Below are positions 1,883-30,312 of a DNA stretch of 64,000 bases, piece after piece. How positions within the stretch are numbered: position 1 is the first letter of the stretch; each line of letters starts with the position of its first letter. A program made the translations under genes and the position numbers. The notes beneath the pieces are model-generated. The model was not told the origin of the DNA and ran no database searches. It saw only the letters and a program-made list of their open reading frames with translations. The DNA is from Candidatus Omnitrophota bacterium (lineage in GTDB: Bacteria; Omnitrophota; Gorgyraeia; Aquiviventales; Aquiviventaceae), in NCBI GenBank assembly GCA_016193195.1, contig JACPSQ010000086.1, positions 17,299 through 81,298 of the forward strand. The letters are read 5' to 3'.

Positions 1883-1890
1883 GGCGTGGG

Positions 1891-6000: not shown

Positions 6001-6693
6001 ATGGAACTGAGCACCTACCGGGATATGCACCTCCTCGATGAGGTCACCCGGAATCCCACCGTGACCCAGCGAGAGCTCGCCAAGCGCATCGGGGTCGCCT
6101 TAGGCCTGGCCAACCTGATGCTGCGCCGCCTGACCAAGAAGGGCTACATCAAAATCAGCGGCACGAAGCGCAGCCGCATCCGCTACCTCATTACCCCGCA
6201 AGGCATCCTTGAGAAATCCCGCTTGACCTACGAGTTCGTCCAATATTCCCTCCAACTCTATCATCGCGTCCGCCATTTCTGGCGCGAGCAGCTGGCGACC
6301 ATCGCCCAAACCCCCCAGCGGCGGATCCTGCTCTTCGGCGCTGGCGAGCTGGCCGAGATCGCCTTCCTGACCATTCAGGAAATGGGCTTGGACTTCGTCG
6401 GCGTCGCCCAGGAGGCGGCCGATGAACGACGGTTTCTCGGCTATCCCGTTCAGGACATCCGCACGGTGGCACCGGACCGTTACGATTGGATGCTGGTCAC
6501 GGCCTTGCAGGACGACGGGTTGTCGACTCGCTTGCAGGAGCTGGGCGTGCCGCCGGAGCAGATGATCGTGTTGACCAGGCCAGGGCAGGCCAGGCCGGCC
6601 ATCGAGCGACGCAGCATCGAACAGATGGCCGTGGCCACCACGGCGCCCGTGCCGGTGCCGACGGCTCCCGTTGAAGCGGAGATCGCGGCATGA
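6001..6693 (+). CDS. Winged-helix transcriptional regulator with a C-terminal Rossmann-like domain
   Basis: The N-terminus TQRELAKRIGVALGLANLMLRRLTKKGYIK is an HTH. The C-terminal ILLFGAGELAEIAFL...DFVGV is a nucleotide-binding-like domain. It is the first gene of the plus-strand array. Confidence 0.55.
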   Translation: MELSTYRDMHLLDEVTRNPTVTQRELAKRIGVALGLANLMLRRLTKKGYIKISGTKRSRIRYLITPQGILEKSRLTYEFVQYSLQLYHRVRHFWREQLATIAQTPQRRILLFGAGELAEIAFLTIQEMGLDFVGVAQEAADERRFLGYPVQDIRTVAPDRYDWMLVTALQDDGLSTRLQELGVPPEQMIVLTRPGQARPAIERRSIEQMAVATTAPVPVPTAPVEAEIAA

Positions 6694-7256
6694 AACGCGC
6701 GGTGTTTCTGGATCGGGACGGCGTGCTCAATCAGGCGGTCGTGCGGGACGGCAAGCCATACGCGCCGGCCTCCCTGGAGGAGTTGGCGATCGTGCCCGAT
6801 GCCGCGGAGGCGATCACGACCTTGCGCCAGGCGGGGTTTCTCGCCATTGTCGTGACGAACCAACCCGATGTCGGCCGCGGCCTCCAACGCCGTGAGACGG
6901 TCGAAGCGATGCATCAGCGGCTCCGCGCGCAGCTGCCCATCGATGACATCCGGGTCTGTTATCACCGGGAGGAAGACGCCTGCGCGTGCCGGAAACCGAA
7001 ACCGGGGATGCTGCGCGACGCGGCCCGTGACTGGGATGTGGACCTGAGCCGCTCGATCATGGTGGGGGACCGGTGGCGGGACATCGAGGCGGGCAAAGCG
7101 GCCGGATGCCGCACGATTTTGGTGCGGAGCCCGTGGGCGGAGCAACAGGCCCAGGCTCCCGACGCGGTCGTGGCGTCCCTGCACGAAGCCAGCCGGCTGA
7201 TCCTGTCAGCGTGGATCAGCCGCCGACCCTACGGAGCAGCGCATGCCCAGGCTTGA
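6690..7256 (+). CDS. gmhB: D-glycero-D-manno-heptose 1,7-bisphosphate phosphatase-like HAD phosphatase (GmhB family)
   Basis: AVFLDRDGVLN (DxDGT motif I), VVTNQPDVGRG, and CYHREEDACACRKPKPGML (the GmhB zinc-binding cysteine loop plus KPxPGM). Confidence 0.8.
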   Translation: MKRAVFLDRDGVLNQAVVRDGKPYAPASLEELAIVPDAAEAITTLRQAGFLAIVVTNQPDVGRGLQRRETVEAMHQRLRAQLPIDDIRVCYHREEDACACRKPKPGMLRDAARDWDVDLSRSIMVGDRWRDIEAGKAAGCRTILVRSPWAEQQAQAPDAVVASLHEASRLILSAWISRRPYGAAHAQA

Positions 7257-8007
7257 GGAGTTACGGGTCAAGATCTTTGCGGACGGGGCGGACCTTGCGA
7301 CCATCGCGGAGCTCGCCAAGCATCCCTACATCAGGGGCTTCACAACCAACCCAACCCTGATGCGCAAGGCGGGTGTGCCGGACTACCGCCGGTTTGCTCG
7401 CGAGGTGCTGACGCTGGTGCCAGATCGCCCCGTGTCGTTTGAGGTCTTCTCGGATGATTTCCCCGAGATGGAACAGCAGGCGCTGGAGATCGCCTCGTGG
7501 GGCGACAATGTCTATGTCAAGATTCCGGTGACGAATACGCGCGGGGCGTTTTCCGGCCCGCTCATTAAGCGGCTCTCCGAAGCCGGCGTCAAGCTGAACG
7601 TGACCGCCCTGCTGACGAGCGAGCAGGTGGGCCGCGTCACCGACTGTTTCTCGCCGGGGAGGAGCAGCTTTATCTCGGTGTTCGCGGGACGGATCGCCGA
7701 CACCGGCCGCGACCCCGTGTCCCTCATGGCCGAGTCGCTGCGGCTGATGGCCAGCCGCCCACAGGCCGAGCTGATCTGGGCCAGCCCCCGCGAGCTGCTC
7801 AACGTGATCCAGGCTGACGCCATCGGCTGCCACATCATCACCGCCACCAGCGACATCTTGGCCAAGCTCTCCTTGATCGGGAAGGATCTGTCGGAACTCT
7901 CGTTGGACACGGTGCGGATGTTTCGGCAGGATGCGCTCCAGGCGGGTTTTACGATTGAGCTCAGCCAGGCCGAGGCGGTCGGCTCGGCGGCCGCCGCCCC
8001 GCGATGA
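7243..8007 (+). CDS. Transaldolase / fructose-6-phosphate aldolase family protein
   Basis: KIFADGADL...GFTTNPTL, VYVKIPVT, and the NVTALLT Schiff-base-lysine region are typical of TalC/FSA-type transaldolases. Confidence 0.75.
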   Translation: MPRLEELRVKIFADGADLATIAELAKHPYIRGFTTNPTLMRKAGVPDYRRFAREVLTLVPDRPVSFEVFSDDFPEMEQQALEIASWGDNVYVKIPVTNTRGAFSGPLIKRLSEAGVKLNVTALLTSEQVGRVTDCFSPGRSSFISVFAGRIADTGRDPVSLMAESLRLMASRPQAELIWASPRELLNVIQADAIGCHIITATSDILAKLSLIGKDLSELSLDTVRMFRQDALQAGFTIELSQAEAVGSAAAAPR

Positions 8008-9041
8008 AGCCGCCGTCTCCTCGACCGGTGCTGGTGACGGGCGGCGCCGGCTATGTCGGCTGCGTGCTCGTCCGAAAGCTGCTGGAGGCCGGCTACCCGG
8101 TGACCGTGTATGACCTGATGCTCTTCGGCGATGCGGGGTTGCCCACCCACGCCGCCCTGCGCGTCGTCAAGGGAGACATCCGCGATCTTCCGACGCTTGC
8201 CGCGGCGGTGCGGGGCGCGCACAGCGTGATTCATCTGGCCTGCATTTCCAACGACCCGAGTTTCGAATTGGATCCGGTGCTGGGCAAGTCGATCAACTAC
8301 GACAGCTTTGAGCCGTTGGTGCGGACCTGTAAAGCGGGTGGTGTGCGGCGATTTATCTATGCCTCCACCAGTTCGGTCTATGGGGTCAGCGACGCCCCGG
8401 ACGTCACCGAGGAACACCCCTTGGTGCCCTTGACGGATTACAATAAGTACAAGGGCTTGTGCGAGCCGATCCTCCTGCGCTACCAGTCGCCGGACTTTAC
8501 CACGGTGATCCTTCGGCCCGCCACGGTCTGCGGCCCTTCGCCGCGGATGCGCTTTGATCTGACCGTGAATATCCTCACCAACCATGCCGTGAATCGGCGT
8601 GTCATCACCGTCTTTGGCGGGACGCAGCGACGGCCGAACATCCATATCGAGGACATCGCCGAGCTCTACGTCAAGCTGCTGGAGTACCCGGACGGCTTGA
8701 TTGCCGGGGAGACCTTCAACGCTGGCTACCAGAATCACACCGTCGGCGAATTGGCTCACCTGGTCCGCCAGGTCGTCGAACAAGAGATGCCGCAGCCGGC
8801 ACCCATTCAGATCCAGACCAGCCCAACCGACGATCTCCGTTCCTACCATGTCTCATCCAGAAAAATCGCCGAGCGGCTTGGCTATGTTCCCGCGCGGACT
8901 ATTGAGGACGCCGTTCGCGATCTCTGTCGCGCCTTCACGGCAGGCAGGTTTCCCGACAGCCTGACCGATGAGCGGTACTTCAACGTGAAAGCGGTCAAGC
9001 GGATGACGCCCACCCTGCTCATGGAGCCGGTCGGCTCTTGA
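8004..9041 (+). CDS. NAD-dependent nucleotide-sugar epimerase/dehydratase (extended SDR)
   Basis: [15 protein letters not shown] Rossmann motif, with YASTSSVYG and YNKYKGLCE (YxxxK). Confidence 0.8.
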   Translation: MKPPSPRPVLVTGGAGYVGCVLVRKLLEAGYPVTVYDLMLFGDAGLPTHAALRVVKGDIRDLPTLAAAVRGAHSVIHLACISNDPSFELDPVLGKSINYDSFEPLVRTCKAGGVRRFIYASTSSVYGVSDAPDVTEEHPLVPLTDYNKYKGLCEPILLRYQSPDFTTVILRPATVCGPSPRMRFDLTVNILTNHAVNRRVITVFGGTQRRPNIHIEDIAELYVKLLEYPDGLIAGETFNAGYQNHTVGELAHLVRQVVEQEMPQPAPIQIQTSPTDDLRSYHVSSRKIAERLGYVPARTIEDAVRDLCRAFTAGRFPDSLTDERYFNVKAVKRMTPTLLMEPVGS

Positions 9042-10033
9042 TGCCGCAGCAGGTTGCAGTCGTGACTGGAGGGGCGGGGTTCATCGGCAGCCACATGGTG
9101 GACCTGCTGTTGGACCGCGGCTTCGACGTGCGAGCGATTGACAATCTTGCCTGCGGGCGTCGGGAAAACCTCGCGCACCAGAACGGCCACCCCCGCCCGG
9201 TGTTTGAGGCCCGGGATGTGCGGGACCTGCGTCCCGGCGACCCCTTGTTGGAGGGGGCCGACTATGTCTTCCATTTCGCGGGGATCGGAGACATCGTCCC
9301 GTCGATTGAGCGGCCGACCGAGTACCTGTCCTCCAATGTCATGGGCACGGTCTGCGCCCTCGAGGCGGCCCGGTGGGCGAAGGTGAAGAAGTTCATCTAT
9401 GCCGCCTCCTCCTCCTGCTACGGCCTGGCCACTGAGCTGCCGACCACGGAGCAGGCTCCCATCAGTCCTCAGTATCCCTACGCGCTGAGCAAGTACCTTG
9501 GCGAACAAGCCGTCATGCATTGGGGCAAGGTCTATCAGTTGCCGGTGATCTCCCTGCGCATCTTCAACGCCTATGGCCCGCGCTCGCGCACGACCGGCGC
9601 CTACGGCGCCGTCTTTGGAGTCTTCCTGGCGCAGAAGCTCGCCGGGAAGCCGTTCACGGTAGTAGGCGACGGAACGCAGCGTCGGGATTTCGTCTTTGTA
9701 ACCGATCTGGCAAAGGCGTTTCTACTCGCGGCTGAGTCCGATTGCACGCAAGACATCTTCAACGTCGGGGCTGGCCAGCCGCAGTCAGTGAATCGACTCG
9801 TGGAGCTGTTAGGCGGTGAAGTCGTCCATGTGCCCAAGCGCCCTGGAGAGCCGGATTGCACGTGGGCCGATACGACACGCATCCGGACAATGCTTGGATG
9901 GGTGCCGACGGTGTCGTTTGAAGCAGGCGTCAAGACCATGTTGGGCTCGATTGACGATTGGCGCGCCGCACCGGTGTGGGATGAGACGGCGATTGCAGAG
10001 GCAACGGCATCATGGTTCAAGTATCTGAAATAA
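9038..10033 (+). CDS. NAD-dependent nucleotide-sugar 4-epimerase-like (extended SDR)
   Basis: [23 protein letters not shown] and YALSKYLGE (YxxxK). The start overlaps the preceding stop (ATGA). Confidence 0.8.
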   Translation: MMPQQVAVVTGGAGFIGSHMVDLLLDRGFDVRAIDNLACGRRENLAHQNGHPRPVFEARDVRDLRPGDPLLEGADYVFHFAGIGDIVPSIERPTEYLSSNVMGTVCALEAARWAKVKKFIYAASSSCYGLATELPTTEQAPISPQYPYALSKYLGEQAVMHWGKVYQLPVISLRIFNAYGPRSRTTGAYGAVFGVFLAQKLAGKPFTVVGDGTQRRDFVFVTDLAKAFLLAAESDCTQDIFNVGAGQPQSVNRLVELLGGEVVHVPKRPGEPDCTWADTTRIRTMLGWVPTVSFEAGVKTMLGSIDDWRAAPVWDETAIAEATASWFKYLK

Positions 10034-11721
10034 CCGACGTCCGGTTGGAGAGTTCCCGCCCGGCTGTTGTCCTGGCGCTGCCGCTGAAGCGCGCGTTGGA
10101 GCGGTTGCTCCTGTGCAATCGGATCCGCGAGCTGGCGGACTACCGGATGACACCGGTGACGGTGAAGGATCTGCGCGGCATAGGAGGTCTCTTAGCATTC
10201 CTGGTTCGCGTGGTGGACCCATCCGGTATCCGGGCGCGTCGCTCCGGAGCGATTCAGCTTCTCATGGACGTCTGGATCATCATCACGCTCCGGCTGCTCC
10301 TGTTGTTCCGGAGGCATCGGATCGGGGAAGACCTGCGCTCGACCGTGGGTGTCCTCTGCCGAGCCGTGCTGTTCCGGCACCAGCGCTACGCGGCCCGTCC
10401 AACCACTGAGATGGTGCCGCACGTGCGGTGTTCCGAGAAGGAGGAGCTGTTGATCCGATCCTGCCTGTTGCTGCGCACCATGCAGCGGTACGGGCCATGC
10501 ATTGAATTCCTCATCCAGCGCCTCACCTCCGGGCTACCGGCTGCCGAGACGCGGCGATGGCTCGCCTTCTTCCTGCGTGAGATTGGGGATGACACCGCGG
10601 CTGACGCGTTGCTGACGATGGAGCCCGCGGCATCCGAAGCCACCGTCATCCACCACCTGGAAGTTCCAAAGCCTCCGGCGCAACATGCGCCGAGGCGACT
10701 CAAATACGGCCTGTACGTGATGACGGTGTTCGATTCGGACGTCTTCCGCAGCTCGCTGCTGAGCCTTATGAACAGTGATTACGACGGCCAGATCGTCGTG
10801 GCCGAAGACGGCTACCTTCCAAACAAGGTCTGCGAGGCATTTTGCCGGGAGGTCGGTGTTCCCTATATCAAGAACCCGGAGTGGACGTACACCCAGCCGT
10901 TGGCGAACCTGGCGATTCAGGCGTTTGATGAGGATACCGACATTCTGCTCCAGGCGCCGAACGACGTGCTCTGGCCCCCCCGCTGGTTTGGTCAACTTGA
11001 TGGGGCCTGGAAGCGGGTCTTTGACACTGGAAAGGTTGGTGGACTGACCATGAGTGCTGTGCAATTTGACGCCTCCGTGGAGCCTATGCTCAAAGAGGCG
11101 TTTGTGAGGGGGCGTTATGAAGGCCTGTTGTGGGTCTTAAAAATGCGGGCACAGGTTCACCCCTGGCTGGATTGGTATCGTGAAGCCCTGCCTCACGATG
11201 GGAGCCAGCTGTTTGGGTTGCCCAAGGATCTCTACACCGACGATGTGACCAGGCTCTTGTGGAAAGTTGCCTATGGAGGGGCGGTTTCGACCTTCTCCCG
11301 AACCCTCTGGACGGAAGTCAACAGGGTGCCATCACAGATGCGCGCCAATCTTGATCTGGAACTGGGCTACCAGTGTTGGACAAGCCGACGATGGTTCCTC
11401 GCCGTCAATAACACGCCTCTCATTCATATGATAGGACAGGATAGCCGTCGATTGACCGGCCGTGATAAGGTGCTTAAGGTGCGAGTGAAGGAAATGTTCA
11501 AGCAGGATGACGCGCTCTTCAGACAAAAGTACGGCGAGGACTGGTACCCACCCTATTGGTATTTTTCTGGCGAGAGCTGCATGATTTACCACGACGAGAT
11601 TCTGCGTGCGGTCAACGAGGGACGATTTGACGAGATCGACTTCGTGTTTGATGATTTCGAAGCCCGACGGAAGGGACGGTACTGGGCCTGTTCGCTCCCC
11701 TCGCTTTCACGCTCACAGTGA
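10012..11721 (+). CDS. Hypothetical protein (possible divergent GT-A-like domain)
   Basis: 569-aa ORF with no motif I can assign. The central YGLYVMTVFDSD...IVVAEDGY is faintly GT-A/DxD-like. The true start may be internal (ATG at 10147). Confidence 0.35.
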   Translation: MVQVSEITDVRLESSRPAVVLALPLKRALERLLLCNRIRELADYRMTPVTVKDLRGIGGLLAFLVRVVDPSGIRARRSGAIQLLMDVWIIITLRLLLLFRRHRIGEDLRSTVGVLCRAVLFRHQRYAARPTTEMVPHVRCSEKEELLIRSCLLLRTMQRYGPCIEFLIQRLTSGLPAAETRRWLAFFLREIGDDTAADALLTMEPAASEATVIHHLEVPKPPAQHAPRRLKYGLYVMTVFDSDVFRSSLLSLMNSDYDGQIVVAEDGYLPNKVCEAFCREVGVPYIKNPEWTYTQPLANLAIQAFDEDTDILLQAPNDVLWPPRWFGQLDGAWKRVFDTGKVGGLTMSAVQFDASVEPMLKEAFVRGRYEGLLWVLKMRAQVHPWLDWYREALPHDGSQLFGLPKDLYTDDVTRLLWKVAYGGAVSTFSRTLWTEVNRVPSQMRANLDLELGYQCWTSRRWFLAVNNTPLIHMIGQDSRRLTGRDKVLKVRVKEMFKQDDALFRQKYGEDWYPPYWYFSGESCMIYHDEILRAVNEGRFDEIDFVFDDFEARRKGRYWACSLPSLSRSQ

Positions 11722-11725
11722 ACCG

Positions 11726-13279
11726 ATGCCAGAGCTAACCACTGACGTGCGAACGAGCAGTCGTGAGCTCAAGTGTCTGGAGCTCGATCGATTGGCGGAG
11801 CATCTCGCACGCTTGCGAGGTGAGGGGAAGAAGATTGTCTTGTGTCACGGCGTATTCGACCTCCTCCACATCGGGCACGTTCGATATTTTCAACGCGCCA
11901 AGCAACTGGGTGACGTCCTGGTGGTGACGGTGACCCCCGATCGTTTTGTCAACAAAGGTCCCCAACGACCAGCCTTTTCTGAATCGCTGCGCATAGAAGC
12001 CCTTGCCGCACTGGAATGCGTCGACCATGTCGCCCTGAATCGGTGGCCGATGGCGGTGGAAACCATCCGCTTGCTGCAACCTCATGTCTATGTGAAGGGG
12101 CCGGATTACAAAGACCCTGACAACGATCACACAGGCGGGATTGTCCTTGAGGAGGCTGCTGTCAAATCCGTGAATGGACAGCTGGTGATTACCGATGACA
12201 TCACCTTCAGTGCTTCTCATCTGATCAATCGGCACCTGCCGTTGTTGTCCCAGGAAGCGACGCAGTTCCTTGAGCGTTTTTCATCCCGGTATACCTCAGC
12301 AGAGGTGCTTTGCTACCTGGAACAGGCACGTCCGCTGAAGGTCTTGGTTGTCGGAGAGGCCATCATCGACGAATATCAATACTGTGAATCTATTGGCAAA
12401 TCATCGAAGGAGCCAATGCTCGCCGTCAAGCGTCTTGCCATGGAACGGTTTGCCGGTGGGACCCTTGCGGTGGCCAACCACGTCGCGAACTTTTGCGATC
12501 AGCCGGGGCTCATCACCTTCCTTGGAGTGGATGATCCGAAGGAAACGTTCATTCGAGAGAAGCTGAATCCCAACGTCCAGCCGCGGTTTCTGTATCGGGC
12601 AGGCGCTCCCACGATTGTGAAACGCCGATTCATCGACCAGTATTTCTTTACGAAATTCCTGGAGGTGTATGAGATCAACGACGAGGCTTGGGACCCGCGT
12701 GATCATGACGTCTTGTGTGAGGAGTTGCGTACCCAAGTCCCGAACTACGATGTCGTGCTGGCCGTGGACTTTGGCCACGAGATGTTCAGTCGAGAGGCGA
12801 TTGATCTTGTCTGTGAGAAGGCAAAGTTCCTTGTCGTCAACACGCAGTGTAACGCTGGCAACCTCGGCTACCACTCCATCTCCAAGTATCCACGGGTGGA
12901 CTATGTCTGTCTGGCGGAGAGGGAGCTTCGGCTCGAGATGCGGGATCGTCGAGGGGATCTCAAGTCGTTGATTCAGCAGATTGCCCAGCGGCTTCGGTGT
13001 CCTGTGACGGCCACCCGCGGCGCCTATGGATGCCTCTCCTACAGTGAAAAGGATGGTTTTGTGGAGGTGCCGGCGTTCGCCAATCAGGTGGTGGACCGGA
13101 TGGGCGCCGGGGATACCTTTCTGTCGCTGGCGGCCCTGTGTGTCGCGGCGAAGGCGCCGCTTGAGATCGTCGGGTTCATCGGCAATGTCGCGGGAGCAGA
13201 AGCCGTCGCCACCGTGGGTCACCGCACGTCGATCGAGCGGGCGAGGTTCTTCAAGCACATTGAATCCTTACTCAAGTGA
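11726..13279 (+). CDS. Bifunctional heptose-1-P adenylyl(cytidylyl)transferase / PfkB sugar kinase with REVERSED HldE domain order
   Basis: N-terminal KKIVLCHGVFDLLHIGHVRYFQRAKQLGDVLVVTVTPD is the RfaE domain II (HxGH nucleotidyltransferase). The C-terminus carries the PfkB signature DRMGAGDTFLS. E. coli HldE has kinase first and transferase second. Confidence 0.75.
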   Translation: MPELTTDVRTSSRELKCLELDRLAEHLARLRGEGKKIVLCHGVFDLLHIGHVRYFQRAKQLGDVLVVTVTPDRFVNKGPQRPAFSESLRIEALAALECVDHVALNRWPMAVETIRLLQPHVYVKGPDYKDPDNDHTGGIVLEEAAVKSVNGQLVITDDITFSASHLINRHLPLLSQEATQFLERFSSRYTSAEVLCYLEQARPLKVLVVGEAIIDEYQYCESIGKSSKEPMLAVKRLAMERFAGGTLAVANHVANFCDQPGLITFLGVDDPKETFIREKLNPNVQPRFLYRAGAPTIVKRRFIDQYFFTKFLEVYEINDEAWDPRDHDVLCEELRTQVPNYDVVLAVDFGHEMFSREAIDLVCEKAKFLVVNTQCNAGNLGYHSISKYPRVDYVCLAERELRLEMRDRRGDLKSLIQQIAQRLRCPVTATRGAYGCLSYSEKDGFVEVPAFANQVVDRMGAGDTFLSLAALCVAAKAPLEIVGFIGNVAGAEAVATVGHRTSIERARFFKHIESLLK

Positions 13280-14265
13280 AGAGATACGGCATGACGCCGG
13301 AAGCCCAAAGGATGCGGTGGTTGTATTACAACCTGCTCAGGATTCGTATGGTGGAGGAGACTATTGCGCAACGTTATGCGCAGCAGGAGATGCGTTGCCC
13401 TATCCATCTGTGCATTGGTCAGGAAGCGATCGCGGTCGGAGTCTGCGCCCACCTGGCTCGCGAGGACTACGTGTTGAGCGGGCATCGTTCGCACGGGCAC
13501 TACCTGGCCAAGGGCGGCGATCTCAATGCCATGGTCGCAGAACTCTATGGCAAGGCAACGGGGTGCGCCGGAGGCCGCGGCGGTTCGATGCATTTGATAG
13601 ACCTCTCCGCTGGATTTTTGGGCGCAACCCCGATTGTGGCCGCCTCCATTCCGATCGCCGTGGGGGCGGCGTTAGGGTCGGTCATGCAAAAAGAGCCTCG
13701 AGTGACCGTGATCTTTTTCGGCGACGCAGCCCCGGAGGCCGGGGCGTGTCACGAGAGTCTGAATTTCGCGTTGCTCAAGCGCCTGCCAGTCGTCTTCGTG
13801 TGCGAAAATAACCTGTATTCCGTCTATTCGCCGATGTCGGTTCGTCAACCTGAAGGCAGACCGCTTGCCTCGCTCGCTGCTGGACATGGGATGGCCACGT
13901 ACCGGGGCGACGGCAATGATGTGTTCAGCGTCTCTGCCATCGCGCAGGAGGCCATCCGGCAGGTGAGGGATGGTGGGGGACCGATGTTTCTCGAGTTCAT
14001 GACCTACCGCTGGCGGGAGCACTGCGGCCCCTACTATGACAACGACCTCGGCTACCGAAGCGAGCAGGAATTTCAAGACTGGAAGCAGCGGTGCCCGGTT
14101 GCGCGGTGCCGAGAACGCCTCCTCCGTGAAGGCATCCTCACTAGCCAGGATCACGAAGAGATCGTTCGGACGTTGGAACGCGAGATTGACGCGGCGTTTC
14201 GTTTCGCCAAGGAAAGCCTTTTTCCTGAAGCTCAGGAACTCTTGGAGCACGTGTACGCGCCATGA
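13276..14265 (+). CDS. ThDP-dependent dehydrogenase E1 component, alpha subunit
   Basis: CPIHLCIGQEA...GHRSHGHYLAKG...GGRGGSMH are E1-alpha ThDP-binding motifs. Start is either GTG 13276 or ATG 13291. Confidence 0.8.
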   Translation: MKRYGMTPEAQRMRWLYYNLLRIRMVEETIAQRYAQQEMRCPIHLCIGQEAIAVGVCAHLAREDYVLSGHRSHGHYLAKGGDLNAMVAELYGKATGCAGGRGGSMHLIDLSAGFLGATPIVAASIPIAVGAALGSVMQKEPRVTVIFFGDAAPEAGACHESLNFALLKRLPVVFVCENNLYSVYSPMSVRQPEGRPLASLAAGHGMATYRGDGNDVFSVSAIAQEAIRQVRDGGGPMFLEFMTYRWREHCGPYYDNDLGYRSEQEFQDWKQRCPVARCRERLLREGILTSQDHEEIVRTLEREIDAAFRFAKESLFPEAQELLEHVYAP

Positions 14266-15323
14266 TGAGAGAACTGAAGTTCTACGAAGCGATTCGCGAG
14301 GCGCTCGACCTGTGTCTGGCCAAGGACCCGCGAGTCTACCTGATGGGGCTCGGCGTGCCGGATCCAAAGGGCATCTTTGGGAGCACCCTTGGGCTCCAGC
14401 AACGATACGGCTCATGGCGGGTGATGGATATGCCTACCTCAGAAAACGGGATGACGGGAATTGCCATCGGCTCAGCCCTCAACGGGATGAGGCCGGTGTT
14501 AAGCCACCAGCGTGTGGATTTCTCATTGTTGGCGATGGAGCAGATGGTCAACCAAGCCGCCAAGTGGCGGTACATGTTTGGCGGCAGGCACAGCGTCCCA
14601 GTGGTCATCCGCATGATCATCGGACGCGGATGGGGACAGGGACCACAACACTCCCAGAGCCTTCAGGCGTGGTTCGCCCACATTCCTGGTTTGAAGGTGG
14701 TCATGCCGACCACCCCCTATGACGTGAAAGGTCTCCTCATTTCGAGCATTGAAGATGATAACCCCGTCATCGTGTTGGAGCATCGGTGGCTCTACACCAT
14801 CGTGGGGGAGGTTCCTGAGGGGCTCTACCGTGTGCCGTTAGGGCAAGCCAAGGTGGTACGGGGGGGTCAGGATCTGACGATCGTCGCAACGTCCTACATG
14901 GTGCTCGAAGCGCTTCGGGCCGCGGAACTCTTGGCTGAGCAGGGGATTGCGGCAGAGGTCATCGACGTGCGAAGCCTCAGACCATTGGATGGTCGGGCTA
15001 TTCTCGAGTCGGTGTGCAAGACAGGGCACCTGATCGTTGCAGATGCGGCTTGGACAACCTGCGGGTTCGCGGCGGAGATCGTGGCCTTGGTCTGCGAGCA
15101 TGCGTTCGAGCATCTCAAGCGTCCTCCTCGTCGGGTGACGCTGCCGGACTGTCCTTGTCCGAGCAGCGCGGCATTAGCCAATGACTACTATCCACGGTCC
15201 GTTCATATCGTCGCGGAGGCAAACGCGTTATTAGGGGTGTCCGGCAAGCCGGGTCTGGCTTCGGAGGCGGTATCCTCGGTGCCGCTGGATGTGCCCGATT
15301 TGAACTTCACGGGACCGTTCTGA
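14262..15323 (+). CDS. ThDP-dependent dehydrogenase E1 component, beta subunit (transketolase-like)
   Basis: MGLGVPDPKGIFGSTLGLQQRYG...SENGMTGIAIGSAL is the pyrimidine-binding domain, followed by a C-terminal transketolase_C-like domain. The start is ATGA-coupled to the alpha subunit. Confidence 0.8.
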   Translation: MMRELKFYEAIREALDLCLAKDPRVYLMGLGVPDPKGIFGSTLGLQQRYGSWRVMDMPTSENGMTGIAIGSALNGMRPVLSHQRVDFSLLAMEQMVNQAAKWRYMFGGRHSVPVVIRMIIGRGWGQGPQHSQSLQAWFAHIPGLKVVMPTTPYDVKGLLISSIEDDNPVIVLEHRWLYTIVGEVPEGLYRVPLGQAKVVRGGQDLTIVATSYMVLEALRAAELLAEQGIAAEVIDVRSLRPLDGRAILESVCKTGHLIVADAAWTTCGFAAEIVALVCEHAFEHLKRPPRRVTLPDCPCPSSAALANDYYPRSVHIVAEANALLGVSGKPGLASEAVSSVPLDVPDLNFTGPF

Positions 15324-15324
15324 C

Positions 15325-16401
15325 ATGGCTGATACGCGACGGATCGTCGTCATTGGAAGCAATTCGTTCTCGGGCAGTGACTTCATCGACCTGCTGCTGG
15401 AGGACCCGCGCAACGAAGTGATTGGGATCAGCCGCTCGCCTGAGAAGAGCGCCACCTTCCTTCCCTACAAACGGCGGCAGGGGGCTGCCTTCACGTTCTC
15501 TCAAATAGATGTGAACCGCAACATGTCAGAGCTGGTTCGCCTCCTTGACGACCGGAAGCCCAGCGTTGTGGTCAATTTCGCGGCGCAGAGCGAGGTGGCG
15601 CCGAGTTGGGACTATCCAGAGCAGTGGTTCCAGACCAACGTGGCCTCCCTGGTGGCCCTGGCGAATTACTTGAAAGACCAGTCATGGTGTTGGCGCTATG
15701 TCCACATTTCTTCACCGGAAGTGTATGGGACCTGCGTCGGGCGCGTCCGAGAAGATGCGCCGTTGAATCCCAGTACGCCGTATGCCGCTTCAAAAGCGGC
15801 CGCAGACCTGTTCCTGTTCACTTTGGTCAAGCAGTTCCGGTTTCCTCTCATTATGATCCGCGCCACCAACGTCTACGGGGCTGGCCAGCAGCCATGGAAG
15901 ATCATTCCAAAATCGATGATTTCGCTCAAGCGAGGGCAGACCATCCCCCTGCATGGTGGCGGAGTGGCCGTGAAGTCCTATATCCATATCCGGGACGTGT
16001 CACGCGGCGAGCTGGCTGCGATGGAGATCGGGACTCCGGGCTCGATCTATCACTTGTCTCCGGACCGTGGGTATGCGGTGCGGGAGGTGGTGGAGCGAAT
16101 CTGCGTACTGCTGGGCCGCGACAGGACGGTTACGACTACTGTGGTTGGTGAGCGTCCCGGACAGGATGCCGCGTACGTGATTGATTCCACGCGGGCCCGA
16201 ACCATGCTTGGCTGGGAACCGAAGGTCTCGCTGGACGAAGGATTGGCGGATGTGAAGCAATGGGTCGAGCGGTATTGGGACGTCCTCAAGGACGTTCCGC
16301 TGGAATATCAGCATCAGTCTGAACGCTATGCATTGGTGCCGCTTGAGGAGCGGGAGACGTTGGCGGCATCTGGGTCAGGTGAGCGGGGCGGGCGGCGATG
16401 A
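15325..16401 (+). CDS. NDP-sugar 4,6-dehydratase-like extended SDR
   Basis: IVVIGSNSFSGSDF, HISSPEVYG and YAASKAAAD (YxxxK). It resembles CDP-/GDP-hexose 4,6-dehydratases. Confidence 0.7.
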   Translation: MADTRRIVVIGSNSFSGSDFIDLLLEDPRNEVIGISRSPEKSATFLPYKRRQGAAFTFSQIDVNRNMSELVRLLDDRKPSVVVNFAAQSEVAPSWDYPEQWFQTNVASLVALANYLKDQSWCWRYVHISSPEVYGTCVGRVREDAPLNPSTPYAASKAAADLFLFTLVKQFRFPLIMIRATNVYGAGQQPWKIIPKSMISLKRGQTIPLHGGGVAVKSYIHIRDVSRGELAAMEIGTPGSIYHLSPDRGYAVREVVERICVLLGRDRTVTTTVVGERPGQDAAYVIDSTRARTMLGWEPKVSLDEGLADVKQWVERYWDVLKDVPLEYQHQSERYALVPLEERETLAASGSGERGGRR

Positions 16402-17480
16402 CACAGCCAGTCATGGCGATGGAGGAGGCAGTCCGGCCGCGCATCGCGAAAGCGGCGATTTTGGTGGAACAGAATGCGCCACTCCTCATTGCGGACATCG
16501 AGATCCCGCCGGTGGACGTCGGACAGGTACTCGTGCGGGTCCAGTGCAGCGGGATCTGCGGCAGCCAGCTGAATGAAATCAGCGGCCGTCGAGGGCAGGA
16601 CCGCTTCCTCCCTCACTTGCTGGGCCATGAAGGCGCAGGCCGGGTCGTGGAGGTGGGTCCGGGAGTCCGGAAGATCAAGCCTGGCGACCAGGTGGTGCTG
16701 CATTGGATGGAAGGCTCCGGTATTGAGTCTGCCCCCCCGATATTCCGGCTCGACGGGACCGTGATCAACGCGGGACGGGTGACGACGTTCAGTGAGTACA
16801 CGGTGGTGTCGGAGAACCGCGTCACGCCAATTCCACACGACATCAACCCGGGCGTCGCCTGCCTGCTCGGATGCAGTGTGACCACCGGATTGGGCATTGT
16901 CATTCACGAAGCCAACGTGACACCAGGCCAGTCGCTGGTGGTCTTCGGGGTGGGTGGGATTGGATTGAACGTGGTACAGGGAGCCGACCTGGTGCATGCC
17001 GATCCGATTGTCGCGGTGGACGTAGATGATCGGAAGCTCGTGCAGGCGTGCGCGTTCGGCGCGACCCACACGGTCTCTGTGGCGCAGGCTGAGACAGGGC
17101 TGGAGGCACGGTTGAAGGATCTGACCGAAGGAGCAGGGTTTGATGTCGCAGTGGACACCACAGGGAAGCGGGAGGTGTTTCAGCTCGCCTACCGCGTGAC
17201 CGGTGACGCCGGCAAGACCGTCATGGCCGGTGTGCATGACGCGCAGCAGCCGATCACGATTGACGCCTATCCGCTTCATTTTGGCCGCCGAATTATCGGG
17301 TCGCACGGCGGGGCAACGCAACCGGATTCGGACATCCCTCGCTACCTCCAGCTCTACCGCCGGAAGCGACTGAAATTAGATGAGCAGATTACCCATCGGT
17401 ACAGCCTGGATAACGTCAATGAGGCATTGGAGGCCGTCCGTCGGGGTGAGGCGGTCCGGTGTGTGTTGAAGATGGCATGA
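16398..17480 (+). CDS. Zinc-dependent alcohol dehydrogenase (MDR family)
   Basis: CSGICGSQLNE...GHEGAGRVVEVGPGV is the zinc/ADH signature. GVGGIGLN is the Rossmann GxGxxG. Confidence 0.75.
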   Translation: MTQPVMAMEEAVRPRIAKAAILVEQNAPLLIADIEIPPVDVGQVLVRVQCSGICGSQLNEISGRRGQDRFLPHLLGHEGAGRVVEVGPGVRKIKPGDQVVLHWMEGSGIESAPPIFRLDGTVINAGRVTTFSEYTVVSENRVTPIPHDINPGVACLLGCSVTTGLGIVIHEANVTPGQSLVVFGVGGIGLNVVQGADLVHADPIVAVDVDDRKLVQACAFGATHTVSVAQAETGLEARLKDLTEGAGFDVAVDTTGKREVFQLAYRVTGDAGKTVMAGVHDAQQPITIDAYPLHFGRRIIGSHGGATQPDSDIPRYLQLYRRKRLKLDEQITHRYSLDNVNEALEAVRRGEAVRCVLKMA

Positions 17481-18310
17481 AGGATCTCGACCGTCACTTT
17501 GTTGGTCAGGTCGTGGCTGTGACAGGTGGTGCGCGGGGCATCGGGAGGCGGATTGCCCACGCGTTTGGACAGGAAGGGGCCGCGGTGGTCCTCTGCGACA
17601 TCGATCAGCGGACCGGCGAGGCGGCGAAGGCTGAACTCCGCGACCGGGGTGCGACGGCGGAGTTCCTCCCGACCGATTTAAGTCAGCGCGGTGTGCCTCA
17701 AACGATGGTTCGTCAGATCGTCCAACAATTCGGACGGCTGGATATCTTGATCAATAACGCCCGGTGGACCGTGAAAGCCGGCTTGTTTGAGGAGGATGAG
17801 GAGAGTTGGGAACGCGGGATGGCGGTTTCCCTGCGGGCTCCGTTCTTTGCCGCTCAAGAGGCGATCCGCATGATGGAGAAGACGGGCGGGGGGAGCATTG
17901 TGAATATCAGTTCGGTCTTGGCGTTTGTGACGACCCCATCGGCCTCGGTCTCCTATCATGTGGCCAAAGCCGGACTGGTGCAACTGACGCGGTATCTGGC
18001 GGCCTCTGCCGGAAGGGTGGGGGTTCGGGTCAACGCCATCCTGCCCGGATTCATCGTACAACAGGAGCATTGGGATCGGTATACACAAGACGAGAACCAT
18101 CGCTATCGAGACCTCGCTGAATTTTGCCACCCCCTGCGGCATGTCGGCGGCTCTGACGATGTGGCGCACGCCTGCCTGTTTCTGTGTTCGCCGGAGGCCT
18201 CATTTATCACCGGTCAGTGCCTCATTGTTGACGGAGGATTGACGACGCAGGAACCGTTTGACTTACTGTTCGCGTTCGACCAGCAACGGGGGGAGGCGCC
18301 CTCGTCATGA
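17477..18310 (+). CDS. Short-chain dehydrogenase/reductase (classical SDR)
   Basis: VAVTGGARGIGRRIA, NNA, and YHVAKAGLV (YxxxK). Confidence 0.8.
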   Translation: MKDLDRHFVGQVVAVTGGARGIGRRIAHAFGQEGAAVVLCDIDQRTGEAAKAELRDRGATAEFLPTDLSQRGVPQTMVRQIVQQFGRLDILINNARWTVKAGLFEEDEESWERGMAVSLRAPFFAAQEAIRMMEKTGGGSIVNISSVLAFVTTPSASVSYHVAKAGLVQLTRYLAASAGRVGVRVNAILPGFIVQQEHWDRYTQDENHRYRDLAEFCHPLRHVGGSDDVAHACLFLCSPEASFITGQCLIVDGGLTTQEPFDLLFAFDQQRGEAPSS

Positions 18311-20346
18311 GATCCGTGATCTATTTGGCCGATTTGACGCATACCGGCCCCGTCATCTCTTCGAACGTCCATCCGCTGGCGGCCGGCTTGGTGGGCGCGT
18401 ATGTGGTGGAGCGTTGTCCTAACAGGATCGAGGTCGAGCTGTTCAAGTATCCGCAGGATCTCTCGGCCGCGATGGCACGCCGACGCCCGCGGCTAGTTGG
18501 ATTTTCGAATTATTCCTGGACCTGCAACCTCTCGTACGAGTATGCGCGGCAGATCAAACACGCCTATCCTGAGATCGTGATTGTTTTCGGGGGACCGAAT
18601 TATGGCTTGAGAGAGCAAGAAATGCTGGCCTTTTGGCAGCGGTACCCCCTGATCGACTTCTATCTCGTGAAGGAAGGGGAGCTGCCGATGGTCGAACTGC
18701 TGCACGGCCTTGAGGACTGCGGGTATGACCCCGCGGCGTTGAAGCGCTCCGGCAGATCCCTCCCGAACTGCCACTATCAGTGGCAGGGGACACTGGTGAC
18801 CGGTGAGATCCTCCCCCGCCTCACTGAGCTCGAGCAACTCCCTTCGCCCTACCTCATGGGCCTGATGGACAAATTCTTTGACGGGGTCCTCTCCCCGATG
18901 ATTCACACCACGCGCGGCTGTCCGTTTACCTGCACCTTCTGCAGTGAGGGGGCGACGTATTACAACAAGGTCGCGCAACGTGTCGGCATCGCCGAGGAGC
19001 TCGACTACATTGCCCAGCGGGTGGGCAGCGTGCCTGACCTCTACCTGACGGACGCCAATTTCGGGATGTATCAGCAGGATCGTGAAAAAGCCAAGATCAT
19101 CAGCTCGATTCAGCAGCGATACGGTTGGCCGAAGCGGCTCGTCGTCTCAACAGGGAAGAACCAGAAGGAGCGCGTCATCGAGGTGGCCTCGATGCTCAAT
19201 GGGTCCCTGAACGTGGCCGCGTCCCTCCAATCCACCGACCCCACCGTCCTGCAGAATATTCAACGAGCCAACATCTCCTTGGACGCGCTCAACGTCATGG
19301 CGAAGCAGACCACCGAGACGGGCGCCGATACCTACACCGAACTCATCTTGGGTCTTCCGGGAGACTCCAAACAGGCCCACACCAAATCGTTGCGAGACGT
19401 GGTCGAAGCGGATTTGGGAATCGTGCGGATGTACCAACTGATTATGCTTCCGCAGACCGAGCTGAACACCCCTGAGACCCGCCAGCGGTATGCCATGAAG
19501 ACCAGGTTTCGGATCATGCCTCGATCCTTTGGACGCTACGACCTCCTGGGCAAGGCGATCCTTGCGGTGGAGTCCGAAGAAATCTGTGTGGAGAACAGCA
19601 CCCTGACGTTTGAGGACTACCTCGAGTGTCGGGAGCTGAACCTGACCGTCGAGATCCTCCATAACGGCAGAGTCTTCGTCGAGCTGCAGGGGTTGTGTAA
19701 GTGGCTGGGCTGCTCATGGTTTGATTTCCTCTTGCGCGTGCATCAGCAGCGACGATCCTCCCACGAGGCCCTGAGGCGGTTCTACGAGACCTTCCGTGAG
19801 GAAACCACCAAGCGGTTGTGGGCGACACGAGAGGAGCTGGAGGGGTACGTCAGTCAACACCTTGACGAGCTGCTGGGTCATGAGGAAAGCACCAATGAGA
19901 TGGCGACGTCGAAAGCGATCGCCTTTTTCCAATTGCAGGGGACGCTGCATGACGTTTTGTTTGAGGAGATGACCGCACTCCTCAACGAACGAGGGTGTCT
20001 TGATGAGGTGATGGGAGTGTACATCAGGGAATTGAGAGACTACAGTCAATGTCGAAAGGCCCGGCTGACCGAAGGGCGCGAATACCATGGGAGGTTCCAT
20101 TTTGACTTCCCTGGAATCGGGGAGCATCACTACGCGGTGGACCCTCGGGACTATTTCCTCGAGGGGAGGACTGTTGAGCTGCGGTTCTGTCACAGCGCCA
20201 GGCAGCGCGAGATGATCCAGGGATATCTCCGACAGTATGGCAACACCCTTGACGGGATGGGGAGAATCTTGATGCGTGTCTGGCCGACCACACGTCTCTT
20301 CCGAGAAGTCCTCTGCCAGGAAGAGCACGCGCTGGCAGCCGCGTGA
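18307..20346 (+). CDS. Cobalamin-binding radical SAM enzyme (class B; likely methyltransferase)
   Basis: An N-terminal B12-binding-like region (VGFSNYSW...IVIVFGGPN), then TTRGCPFTCTFCSEG, which is CxxxCxxC. Confidence 0.8.
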   Translation: MRSVIYLADLTHTGPVISSNVHPLAAGLVGAYVVERCPNRIEVELFKYPQDLSAAMARRRPRLVGFSNYSWTCNLSYEYARQIKHAYPEIVIVFGGPNYGLREQEMLAFWQRYPLIDFYLVKEGELPMVELLHGLEDCGYDPAALKRSGRSLPNCHYQWQGTLVTGEILPRLTELEQLPSPYLMGLMDKFFDGVLSPMIHTTRGCPFTCTFCSEGATYYNKVAQRVGIAEELDYIAQRVGSVPDLYLTDANFGMYQQDREKAKIISSIQQRYGWPKRLVVSTGKNQKERVIEVASMLNGSLNVAASLQSTDPTVLQNIQRANISLDALNVMAKQTTETGADTYTELILGLPGDSKQAHTKSLRDVVEADLGIVRMYQLIMLPQTELNTPETRQRYAMKTRFRIMPRSFGRYDLLGKAILAVESEEICVENSTLTFEDYLECRELNLTVEILHNGRVFVELQGLCKWLGCSWFDFLLRVHQQRRSSHEALRRFYETFREETTKRLWATREELEGYVSQHLDELLGHEESTNEMATSKAIAFFQLQGTLHDVLFEEMTALLNERGCLDEVMGVYIRELRDYSQCRKARLTEGREYHGRFHFDFPGIGEHHYAVDPRDYFLEGRTVELRFCHSARQREMIQGYLRQYGNTLDGMGRILMRVWPTTRLFREVLCQEEHALAAA

Positions 20347-21152
20347 GGCCGTGCGGGACGATGGAAGGACGCGTGGCCCTCGTCACCGGGAGCAGCAAAG
20401 GAATCGGCAGGGCCATTGCCCGATCGCTCGCCCGGGGAGGAGCGAAGGTCGTCGTGACGGCGCGGGGCCCTGAGGCACTGGAGCAGGCGGCTCAGGAAGC
20501 CAACGGCTACGGCGGGAACGTGCTGCCGATTGCCGCGGACGCGACAGACCCGAACGCGGTCCGAGCCGTCGTCGAGTCGGCGGTGCGGCACTTCGGTGGG
20601 CTGGACATCTTGGTCAATAACGTGGGAGGCGCCAACCGCATTGCCGAGTTCGCGGAGTTGACGAAGGAGGACTGGATCCACACCTTTGAGCTCAACGTCA
20701 TGACGGTGGTGTACTTTGTCCAAGCGGCCCTTCCCTGGCTCCGAAAATCAGCAGGCGGTCGCATCATCAACATGGCCTCCATTACGGGCGTCGAACCCAG
20801 CCAGCTCGCTCCACACTATGCGGCGAGCAAAGCCGCCATCATTAATCTGAGTAAACATCTCGCGAACCTGTGCGCTCCCAATGGCATCCTCGTCAATGTG
20901 GTCTGTCCCGGTCAGGTGAGCTCCGAGGCCAGGCAGGGGTTGGCCGACTATGTGGCACGGACGCACAACATCCCCCTGGCGGACGCGCGCGTCCGCATCG
21001 ACGCGGAGGGAGCGTCAAGGATTCCTCTTGGCCGACTCGGTGTATGCGAAGACGTGGCTGAACTCGTGTCGTTTCTTGCTTCAGAGAAGGCCGGCTGGAT
21101 CACCGGAGAGTGCTTTCATGTGGACGGAGGAAAACACCGCTCAGCATTCTGA
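20343..21152 (+). CDS. Short-chain dehydrogenase/reductase
   Basis: VALVTGSSKGIGRAIA, NNVG, and YAASKAAII (YxxxK). Confidence 0.8.
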   Translation: MRPCGTMEGRVALVTGSSKGIGRAIARSLARGGAKVVVTARGPEALEQAAQEANGYGGNVLPIAADATDPNAVRAVVESAVRHFGGLDILVNNVGGANRIAEFAELTKEDWIHTFELNVMTVVYFVQAALPWLRKSAGGRIINMASITGVEPSQLAPHYAASKAAIINLSKHLANLCAPNGILVNVVCPGQVSSEARQGLADYVARTHNIPLADARVRIDAEGASRIPLGRLGVCEDVAELVSFLASEKAGWITGECFHVDGGKHRSAF

Positions 21153-22389: not shown

Positions 22390-22390
22390 T

Positions 22391-28750: not shown

Positions 28751-28754
28751 CGCG

Positions 28755-30311: not shown

Positions 30312-30312
30312 C

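Follow-up and report, generated by a model that had tools for sequence, protein, structure and literature searches.

The 64-kb window studied here, i.e. the whole stretch of DNA analyzed (64,000 nucleotides of contig JACPSQ010000086.1, Candidatus Omnitrophota assembly GCA_016193195.1), encodes three two-subunit thiamine diphosphate (ThDP) enzymes on the + strand: a pair resembling the alpha and beta subunits of E1 components such as that of pyruvate dehydrogenase (PDH) (13276-15323), and two split transketolases, here termed TK1 (23170-24917) and TK2 (33458-35223). Judging from their residues and gene contexts, all three are probably stand-alone carboligases that act on nucleotide-activated sugars and do not belong to central metabolism. 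A first-pass annotation had placed three such systems at these coordinates, among sugar-modifying genes and without lipoyl-E2 or E3 partners, and had taken them as a sign of branched-chain or C2-extended sugars. Pfam domains bear out the three systems and their positions, and the proposed sugar chemistry appears to be favored by the absence of E2/E3, by scores below the PDH cut-offs, by the sugar contexts of 72/75 related loci, by the altered transketolases, and by precedent. Beyond that annotation, the locus is a composite of two recurrent modules, the acceptor pathway looks like one for a nucleoside diphosphate (NDP)-heptose (or higher sugar), and the E1 cassette is widespread.

The three systems lie in a near gap-free, co-directional array of + strand genes (~6.0-63.7 kb; G+C ~0.6), within which sugar-nucleotide genes span ~58 kb. 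In total, 61 open reading frames (ORFs) were taken as genes; 60/61 were scanned against Pfam, and 30, including the one without a Pfam scan, against NCBIfam. Nearly all of the scanned ORFs are sugar-nucleotide or glycan genes, consistent with the suggested embedding of all three systems among such genes. Long minus-strand ORFs (e.g. 51946-53901) were set aside, as they overlap + strand genes with strong family matches in DNA of ~60% G+C.

The E1 alpha-like, ThDP-binding subunit (13276-14265; 329 amino acids; Pfam E1_dh, 6.8e-65; an alternative start at M6, 13291, is possible) is followed by an E1 beta-like subunit (14262-15323; 353 amino acids; Transket_pyr, 2e-32; Transketolase_C, 7.8e-36). 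The closest solved structures are the E1 alpha of PDH and of branched-chain 2-oxo acid dehydrogenase (BCKDH) (4e-46) and the E1 beta of PDH (1e-72), but NCBIfam scores fall below the PDH E1 cut-offs for both alpha (299.7 vs. 393.85 bits, PDH_E1_alph_y) and beta (318.6 vs. 321). The alpha subunit contains the metal/ThDP motif G-D-A...E-N-N, with the acidic residue (D/E) present in 23/23 sequences, and the family retains His249; in the beta subunit, Glu61 and His130 align with the catalytic Glu59 and His128 of Geobacillus PDH E1 beta. With its cofactor and active-site residues complete, the pair is expected to be an active catalyst. E1 alpha shares 4 nt at its start with the end of the upstream, HldE-like gene, the alpha and beta genes likewise overlap by 4 nt, and only 2 nt separate E1 beta from the next gene, which encodes a short-chain dehydrogenase/reductase (SDR); thus, the pair looks translationally coupled to both neighbors.

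E1 beta also has a C-terminal tail of its own, D-[VI]-P-D-x-x-F-x-G-P-F (residues ~340-353), which is kept in 77 homologues (loci L005-L084 and L091), is present in Azospirillum oryzae, and is missing from Geobacillus PDH E1 beta and the solved PDH E1 beta chains. A homologue on a Streptomyces griseofuscus plasmid ends in F-A-G-P-Y. At the position of Geobacillus Glu285, the family has a conserved Lys; we presume that Glu285 contacts the E2-binding domain, and give this difference little weight.

Each split transketolase consists of an N subunit (ThDP-binding) and a C subunit (pyrimidine-binding plus C-terminal domain). For TK1, these are encoded at 23170-23955 (Transketolase_N, 4.2e-39; PDB 6yak, 1.3e-62) and 23955-24917 (Transket_pyr and Transketolase_C; PDB 6yaj, 9e-40), both on the + strand; the N-subunit ORF is open from 23089, and the ATG at 23170 overlaps the upstream stop. 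TK2 is likewise encoded on the + strand, at 33458-34312 (Transketolase_N, 1.1e-30; 6yak, 8e-51) and 34309-35223 (Transket_pyr and Transketolase_C; 6yaj, 2e-59). Among solved structures, both come closest to the split transketolase of Carboxydothermus hydrogenoformans (6yak/6yaj). TK2 belongs to a widespread family (67-83% identity), and its C subunit is 100% identical to an entry labeled 'MAG: transketolase [Candidatus Omnitrophica bacterium]'.

With canonical transketolase, including 6yak/6yaj, the window enzymes share the fold, the ThDP/Mg motif, the four catalytic His, and the cofactor-activating Glu, and with 6yak/6yaj also the split architecture. His37, His77, His110, His258, GDGE, and Asn185 (human transketolase numbering, here and below) all occur in both N subunits (by alignment for TK1, by direct reading for TK2), and Arg318 and the cofactor-activating Glu366 are retained in both C subunits. 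The TK1 N subunit has a 5-residue loop deletion after Asn185 relative to the Carboxydothermus and human enzymes; TK2 has no such deletion.

The substrate ligands differ from those of the canonical enzyme. In transketolase, Ser345, His416, and Arg474 bind the substrate phosphate, and Asp424 (yeast Asp477) binds the C2-hydroxyl of the acceptor. In the TK1 family (the window enzyme plus 9 homologues from other phyla), position 345 is Phe or Gly (Phe in the window), 416 is Gly, 424 is Leu, and 474 is Ser, Ala, Glu, or Gly (Ser in the window). In the TK2 family (120 homologues), the corresponding residues are Ala345, Gly416, Leu424, and Lys474, each held in 118-120/120 homologues; Leu424 is found in all 129 homologues examined across the two families. 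By contrast, 6yaj, a bona fide split transketolase, has all canonical ligands intact. Because the phosphate and acceptor-hydroxyl ligands are replaced throughout both families, TK1 and TK2 do not appear to be ordinary pentose-phosphate transketolases, and they lie in a glycan locus rather than among pentose-phosphate genes. The His residues that hold the C1-hydroxyl of the ketol donor are kept, so that a transketolase-type donor step via dihydroxyethyl-ThDP is expected. The first-pass suggestion that the transketolase halves could add C2 ketol units is consistent with these residues, which argue against standard transketolase activity alone; C2 ketol transfer is their predicted activity.

No partner was found for any of these enzymes. 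Proteins with lipoyl/biotinyl, 2-oxoacid_dh, or pyridine-nucleotide-disulfide (E3) domains are absent from the 60 Pfam-scanned ORFs of the window, and E2/E3 are absent from the Pfam-annotated contexts of four further loci (L001-L004). In six frames of the window and 84 loci (1.41 Mb), PROSITE-type patterns gave 0 matches to the lipoyl site, E3 redox disulfide, or E2 motif DHRxxDG; this negative is coarse, as it was obtained with no positive control, but it is in line with the Pfam annotations. None of the 75 family loci showed an E2 or E3 within 10 kb of E1. The absence of lipoyl-E2 and E3 noted in the first pass therefore extends from the locus to the family neighborhoods.

The E1 alpha subunit has thousands of relatives, and the best 120, at 65-99% identity, are spread over very different phyla. 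A census with family-specific peptide patterns in one genome per species, which gives a lower bound, yielded at least 572 confirmed matches, and the family is conserved at 55-76% identity. Hosts include Dehalococcoidia (closest, 71%), Omnitrophota, Planctomycetota, Cyanobacteria (Microcoleus, Lusitaniella), Verrucomicrobiota, Chlamydiota, Elusimicrobiota, Acidobacteriota, Nitrospirota, and others. Gene context was assessed in 75 loci by classifying the ORFs within 10 kb of E1 alpha by BLASTP against the window proteins. E1 beta adjoins E1 alpha in 72/75 loci, and at least one NDP-sugar-type neighbor is likewise found in 72/75. A heptose-pathway-like gene (HldE-like fusion, GmhA-like SIS, or GmhB-like HAD) is present in 54/75; the HldE-like gene itself is within range in 51/75 and is adjoined by an SIS gene in 28/75. 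The GalE/HldD-like SDR (type SDR_8004) is within range in 54/75 loci and, of all genes, most frequently fills the position directly before E1 alpha; the position directly after E1 beta is most frequently filled by the dTDP-glucose-4,6-dehydratase-like SDR (type SDR_15325; within range in 44/75), and DegT aminotransferases are also often found there.

The usual cassette thus comprises an HldE-like kinase/nucleotidyltransferase, a GmhA-like isomerase, SDRs, E1 alpha/beta, and a 4,6-dehydratase-like SDR. Two layouts recur. Type A has the order (SDR)-HldE-like-SIS-SDR-E1 alpha-E1 beta-SDR, often followed by a TylCIII-like sugar C-methyltransferase, a classical SDR, a TK1-type split transketolase, a methyltransferase, and a zinc-dependent alcohol dehydrogenase (Zn-ADH). 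Type B (8 loci) has the order HAD-transaldolase-SDR-SDR-HldE-like-GFO oxidoreductase-NDP-sugar 6-dehydrogenase-RmlD-like SDR-methyltransferase-(SDR)-E1 alpha-E1 beta. The carriers also include a Simkaniaceae genome (CP073763.1). Among cultured carriers, Azospirillum oryzae KACC 14407 has a type A cassette on a plasmid (NZ_CP054615.1; E1 alpha/beta, HUE56_RS00825/00820; E1 alpha 55% identical), in the order SDR-SDR-PfkB kinase-SIS-SDR-E1 alpha-E1 beta-DegT-DegT-...-radical S-adenosylmethionine (SAM) enzyme-NUDIX-glycosyltransferases, and Solidesulfovibrio magneticus RS-1 carries a more distant version on pDMC1. No description of this cassette was found in the literature on heptose/E1 and O-antigen/transketolase systems.

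The window is a composite, in which a type A module with E1 and TK1 (~10012-28750) is nested in a TK2 module (6690-10033 plus 28701-36188). The inner module encodes a 569-amino-acid protein, HldE-like fusion 1, the E1 pair, tailoring enzymes, TK1, and methyltransferases. The outer module begins with a GmhB-like HAD phosphatase (6690-7256, + strand; below the equivalog cut-off), a transaldolase (7243-8007, + strand; above the TIGR02134 cut-off), and two extended SDRs that are GalE/LegB/HldD-like by Pfam/NCBIfam (8004-9041 and 9038-10033, + strand), an arrangement whose HAD and transaldolase genes are syntenic in L016, L039, L048, L062, L076, L085, and L086. It resumes, as the second half of a type B module, with HldE-like fusion 2 (28701-30311), a GFO oxidoreductase, an NDP-sugar 6-dehydrogenase, and an RmlD-like SDR (28701-33454 overall, + strand). 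The two genes on either side of the nested module, i.e. the SDR at 9038-10033 and HldE-like fusion 2, are direct neighbors in the type B modules of eight other genomes.

This arrangement reveals an exchange of ThDP enzymes. The order HldE2-GFO-dehydrogenase-SDR is common to the window, to the eight E1 loci, and to two TK2 loci (L085 and L086); the TK2 loci read HAD-transaldolase-(SIS)-SDR-SDR-HldE-like-GFO-dehydrogenase-SDR-NUDIX-TK_N-TK_C-methyltransferase/ketoreductase. The slot after HldE2-GFO-NDP-sugar dehydrogenase-SDR (and, in places, a methyltransferase) is held by the E1 pair in eight loci, and by TK2 in the window, L085, and L086. Because E1 is unable to make sedoheptulose-7-phosphate, the simplest activity that both occupants could share is a ThDP-dependent transfer of C2 units to one and the same kind of late, nucleotide-activated intermediate.

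We infer the donors, the acceptor, the position of attack, and the final sugar from this combination of residues, gene order, and precedent. HldE-like, GmhA-like, and GmhB-like enzymes, together with the dedicated transaldolase, would generate an NDP-heptose or related higher sugar, which extended SDRs would oxidize or dehydrate to a keto (or aldehydo) intermediate. The E1 pair, presumably of alpha2beta2 type, would convert pyruvate to hydroxyethylidene-ThDP and add the acetyl equivalent to the sugar carbonyl; the split transketolases would take a ketol donor (a ketose phosphate or hydroxypyruvate), form dihydroxyethyl-ThDP, and add a hydroxyacetyl group to a sugar carbonyl. The new C-C bond would be a branch if a ring ketone is attacked, or a chain extension if the acceptor is a terminal aldehyde from the NDP-sugar dehydrogenase step, and the new side chain may then be tailored by SDR and Zn-ADH ketoreductases, aminotransferases, and C- and O-methyltransferases.

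There is precedent for such chemistry. Three classes of ThDP enzyme branch sugars: YerE-like enzymes, E1-like alpha/beta pairs ('alpha-KADH2'), and split-gene transketolases (PMC12247030). Alpha-KADH2 pairs add a pyruvate-derived acetyl group to deoxy-keto sugars of aldgamycin, avilamycin, paulomycin, kosinostatin, and kibdelomycin, as supported by genetics and feeding for aldgamycin and by in vitro assays of KbDH with keto-sugar analogues, and ~120 E1-like sugar-branching clusters are known (PMC12247030); AviB1/AviB2 and Pau11/Pau12 have been assigned as E1-like sugar enzymes (PMC4753412). The parallel drawn in the first pass between the window pair and AviB1/AviB2 is therefore well founded as regards known acetyl C2 branchers of keto-sugars, which also include Pau11/Pau12, the aldgamycin enzymes, and KbDH (PMC12247030, PMC4753412). 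As in AviB1/AviB2-type systems, the pair stands alone without E2/E3 amid genes for NDP-sugar dehydratases, ketoreductases, aminotransferases, and methyltransferases, and by analogy the same chemistry may be expected, i.e. transfer of the acetyl group of pyruvate to a sugar carbonyl, with subsequent reduction or transamination. In the window, a GalE/HldD-like SDR lies upstream of the E1 pair, a 4,6-dehydratase-like SDR downstream, and a Zn-ADH and SDRs follow (DegT in other loci). The acetyl branch of kibdelomycin is transaminated (PMC12247030), to which the frequent position of DegT directly after E1 beta is a parallel. Unlike AviB1/AviB2, the window pair belongs to a locus of cell-surface-glycan type, not to an antibiotic cluster, occurs in Omnitrophota and many other non-actinomycete phyla, is tied to an HldE/GmhA/GmhB-like pathway rather than to 6-deoxyhexose formation, and has its own C-terminal tail.

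For the split transketolases, the nearest described counterparts are those proposed to install hydroxyacetyl groups in miharamycin and amipurimycin biosynthesis, of which 13 sequences are known, all from Streptomyces (PMC12247030). The likeness, drawn from their description, is that of a two-gene transketolase beside an oxidoreductase in sugar tailoring, with C2 ketol transfer proposed; in the window, the corresponding arrangements are SDR_22391-TK1 and SDR_32537-TK2-SDR_35085. In contrast to the miharamycin type, TK1 and TK2 represent two families that are widespread outside Streptomyces and have invariant replacements of phosphate and hydroxyl ligands, and TK2 is interchangeable with the E1 pair in the same module. 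YerE-like enzymes are single-chain enzymes of lipopolysaccharide loci (PMC12247030, PMC9306805), and the first-pass comparison with YerE holds only in part. YerE and ErwE (yersiniose/erwiniose) perform the equivalent step, in that they use ThDP to add an acyl group to an NDP-4-keto sugar, are encoded in lipopolysaccharide loci, and are succeeded by a YerF-like reduction, but they belong to a different, single-chain acetolactate-synthase-like family, and no TPP_enzyme_N/M/C domains of that type were found in the 60/61 scanned window ORFs. With the E1 of PDH, acetoin, and branched-chain complexes, the window pair shares the alpha2beta2-type fold and catalytic residues, and probably also the first half-reaction, decarboxylation of a 2-oxo acid on ThDP; it differs from them in the lack of E2/E3, sub-equivalog scores, NDP-sugar context, and a putative acceptor that is a sugar carbonyl rather than lipoamide.

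Several points weigh against the carboligase interpretation. For all three families, this proposed role rests on comparative and residue-level evidence, and the window pair was likened to AviB1/AviB2, AlmDI/AlmDII, KbDH, and Pau11/Pau12 by gene layout and published descriptions, not by sequence. The hydroxyacetyl transfer proposed for the miharamycin-type split transketolases is itself without in vitro proof (PMC12247030). The two His used in lipoyl acetylation are still present in the E1 pair, such that a lipoyl acceptor is compatible with the sequence alone. The orphan status holds for the locus and the family, and the genome was seen only as the 64-kb window, although the family-level context (75 loci) makes a distant E2/E3 for this pair unlikely. 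Because all heptose-pathway genes score below equivalog cut-offs, it is uncertain whether the pathway starts from a heptose or from some other higher sugar. Finally, plasmid pSGRIFU1 of S. griseofuscus (L092; NZ_CP051007.1) encodes an E1 alpha/beta pair (11995-14041; alpha 50.5% identical to that of the window) in a non-sugar, polyketide synthase/nonribosomal peptide synthetase context with gamma-butyrolactone regulators, a condensation-domain protein, an acyl carrier protein (ACP), a phosphopantetheinyl transferase (PPTase), and ketosynthases; thus, membership of the E1 family does not fix the acceptor.

The split transketolases and the transaldolase might instead merely supply a precursor, raising sedoheptulose-7-phosphate for NDP-heptose synthesis without acting on nucleotide sugars. 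Sedoheptulose-7-phosphate is made by exactly this combination of enzymes, the catalytic machinery of both transketolases is intact, and the transaldolase, which scores above its equivalog cut-off, shares a module with the GmhA-like isomerase and GmhB-like phosphatase. For the transaldolase itself, such a supply function is probably the right explanation. Extended to TK1 and TK2, we regard it as unlikely: Ser345, His416, Arg474, and Asp424 are replaced in both families but kept in the bona fide split transketolase, and the transketolase genes lie away from the transaldolase gene, among late tailoring genes (after the dehydrogenase/SDR and before the methyltransferase/ketoreductase). In eight sister loci, moreover, the transketolase slot is held by an E1 pair that cannot make sedoheptulose-7-phosphate, and precursor supply leaves the E1 pair unexplained. 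The E1 pair could also use the sugar as donor rather than acceptor, if the dehydrogenase and oxidoreductase turned C6-C7 of a heptose into an alpha-keto acid for E1 to decarboxylate; the resulting sugar acyl-anion would either pick up a proton, which shortens the chain and leaves an aldehyde, or couple to another carbonyl. E1 enzymes naturally act on 2-oxo acids, the type B E1 pair directly follows the GFO oxidoreductase, NDP-sugar 6-dehydrogenase, and SDR, and functionalized long-chain 2-oxo acids are known donors for YerE-type enzymes (PMC9306805). Nevertheless, an NDP-sugar dehydrogenase is not nearby in 67/75 E1 loci, the known E1-like sugar enzymes reportedly accept only pyruvate (PMC12247030), and the same slot can be filled by a transketolase, which decarboxylates only such acids as are beta-hydroxylated; the donor role therefore seems quite unlikely to us.

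That the pair is a conventional E1 of pyruvate or acetoin dehydrogenase, with E2/E3 elsewhere in the genome and an incidental sugar context, is very improbable. Its full-length similarity to PDH E1 and its complete set of cofactor and catalytic residues, including the two lipoyl-acetylation His, fit that assignment, as does the label acetoin:2,6-dichlorophenolindophenol (DCPIP) oxidoreductase on some database entries of the family, and the genome data are confined to the window. The sub-cut-off scores, the family-specific E1 beta tail, and the translational coupling to the HldE-like gene and SDR argue otherwise, as does the recurrence of the family (at least 572 matches) in loci that lack E2/E3 within 10 kb (75/75) and have NDP-sugar genes (72/75). 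The C2 unit (acetyl or glycolyl) might also be handed to a lipoyl or ACP carrier for acylation of a sugar, in the manner of NapB/NapD and QncN/QncL, which are carrier-protein C2 systems of nonribosomal peptide pathways. The pSGRIFU1 homologue, beside its condensation-domain protein, ACP, PPTase, and ketosynthases, is in keeping with such a route, but the lipoyl motif is absent from the window and 84 loci, the almost gap-free gene chain leaves no room for a carrier gene near the three systems, and no acyltransferase is paired with them, which together make it extremely improbable here. Two further candidates were rejected. Sulfoquinovose catabolism, in which split transketolases act on sugars that carry no phosphate, would require genes for a sulfoquinovosidase, isomerase, and sulfonate handling, which the window lacks, and the context is biosynthetic; the phosphonopyruvate decarboxylase of phosphonate biosynthesis is of a different ThDP family, and the window has no phosphoenolpyruvate (PEP) mutase.

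If the three enzymes are carboligases, a bolder and tentative extension is that the E1 and transketolase pairs serve as interchangeable C2 modules that enlarge an NDP-heptose (or a transaldolase-seeded octose) stepwise, with acetyl added by E1 and hydroxyacetyl by the two split transketolases, into higher-carbon or multiply branched sugars, namely C9-C11 sugars of surface glycans. Were this true, such sugars would occur in Omnitrophota, Planctomycetota, Chlamydiota, Cyanobacteria, Azospirillum, and others, and the pathway would join the PEP-aldol (NeuB/KdsA) and transaldolase routes as the third general way of making higher sugars.

E1-like sugar-branching enzymes have so far been known only from actinomycete antibiotic clusters. 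New here are a host range of many non-actinomycete, mostly uncultivated phyla, the location in glycan loci, the connection with an HldE/GmhA/GmhB-like pathway in place of a 6-deoxyhexose pathway, sequence signatures that can be defined, the exchange of E1 and TK in one slot, and the presence of three such enzymes in one locus. Both enzyme types form distinct, highly conserved families that are common in surface-glycan clusters of many mostly uncultivated phyla, from which a large and so far unseen group of sugars with C2 branches or C2 extensions can be predicted for environmental bacteria. The signatures, Gly416/Leu424 for the transketolases and the GPF tail for E1 beta, separate these families from their central-metabolism paralogues; present genome annotation mislabels them as 'pyruvate dehydrogenase E1' and 'transketolase'. 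The cultured carriers A. oryzae and S. magneticus make the chemistry testable, and as biocatalysts the enzymes would be attractive for the formation of sugar-attached tertiary alcohols and acyloins.

The heptose-type genes around the ThDP enzymes, all on the + strand, cover GmhA/HldE/GmhB-type activities (isomerase, kinase, phosphatase, and nucleotidyltransferase) at the domain level, all below equivalog cut-offs. HldE-like fusion 1 (11606-13279) has an N-terminal nucleotidyltransferase and a C-terminal PfkB kinase domain (rfaE_dom_II and rfaE_dom_I matches, below cut-off). In both HldE-like fusions, the domain order is reversed relative to E. coli HldE, and scores are far below the rfaE cut-offs; the reversed fusion is present in most of the related loci. 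Directly upstream of fusion 1 is the ORF for the 569-amino-acid protein (10012-11721), which has no Pfam or NCBIfam match and is not found beside E1 in other loci. The GmhA-like SIS isomerase, also below cut-off, is encoded at 46628-47218.

The extended SDR directly downstream of E1 beta (SDR_15325; 15325-16401, + strand) is dTDP-glucose 4,6-dehydratase-like (GDP_Man_Dehyd, 2.4e-41; TIGR01181, 3.6e-56, below cut-off), has the catalytic triad motif S-P-E vs. the T-D-E of 4,6-dehydratases, and is a candidate for the enzyme that makes the keto-sugar acceptor. The tailoring genes of the E1/TK1 module follow on the + strand (16398-23173) and encode a Zn-ADH, an SDR, a B12-radical SAM methyltransferase, a second SDR, a TylCIII-like sugar C-methyltransferase, and a third SDR. 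Their homologues recur beside E1 in other phyla; the C-methyltransferase, which shares the module with E1, is of a type that needs an NDP-keto-sugar, and an SDR_22391-type gene is directly upstream of TK1 in the window and in L025, L044, L065, and L082.

Other genes of the window suggest further unusual sugar chemistry. A UDP-galactopyranose-mutase-like flavoenzyme is encoded directly after the TK2 module (36185-37309), which hints that one product of the locus is used in the furanose form. There are three B12-binding radical SAM enzymes (18307-20346, KedN5-like, of a C-methyltransferase family; 25381-27207; and 52918-54522) and a radical SAM/SPASM enzyme (39736-41019), which points to methylation of sugar carbons that are unactivated, or to other radical reactions. 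The regions 36990-38601 and 43455-44846 hold members of two 'sporadic carbohydrate cluster' families of NCBIfam, TIGR04324, a 2-oxoglutarate/Fe(II) oxygenase family, and TIGR04323, the LIC12192 family (LIC12192 is a Leptospira gene), and a TIGR04372-family glycosyltransferase is also encoded; all three matches are above cut-off, to functionally uncharacterized families.

At the two ends of the window are other glycan modules. An Arn-like region of lipid A aminoarabinose type (116-5836, partly on the minus strand) encodes a PMT_2 glycosyltransferase, an SDR, a GT4 glycosyltransferase, a formyltransferase, and a polysaccharide deacetylase. A nonulosonic-acid module (49045-62632) encodes a CMP-sugar synthetase, NeuB, a hydrolyzing 2-epimerase, a PglD-like acetyltransferase, a CBS-nucleotidyltransferase, a 4,6-dehydratase, and DegT, together with a WbuX/HisH/HisF-type amidotransferase set (acetamidino formation) and an MptE/Maf-like protein (51889-52914) of a type that glycosylates flagellin in other bacteria.

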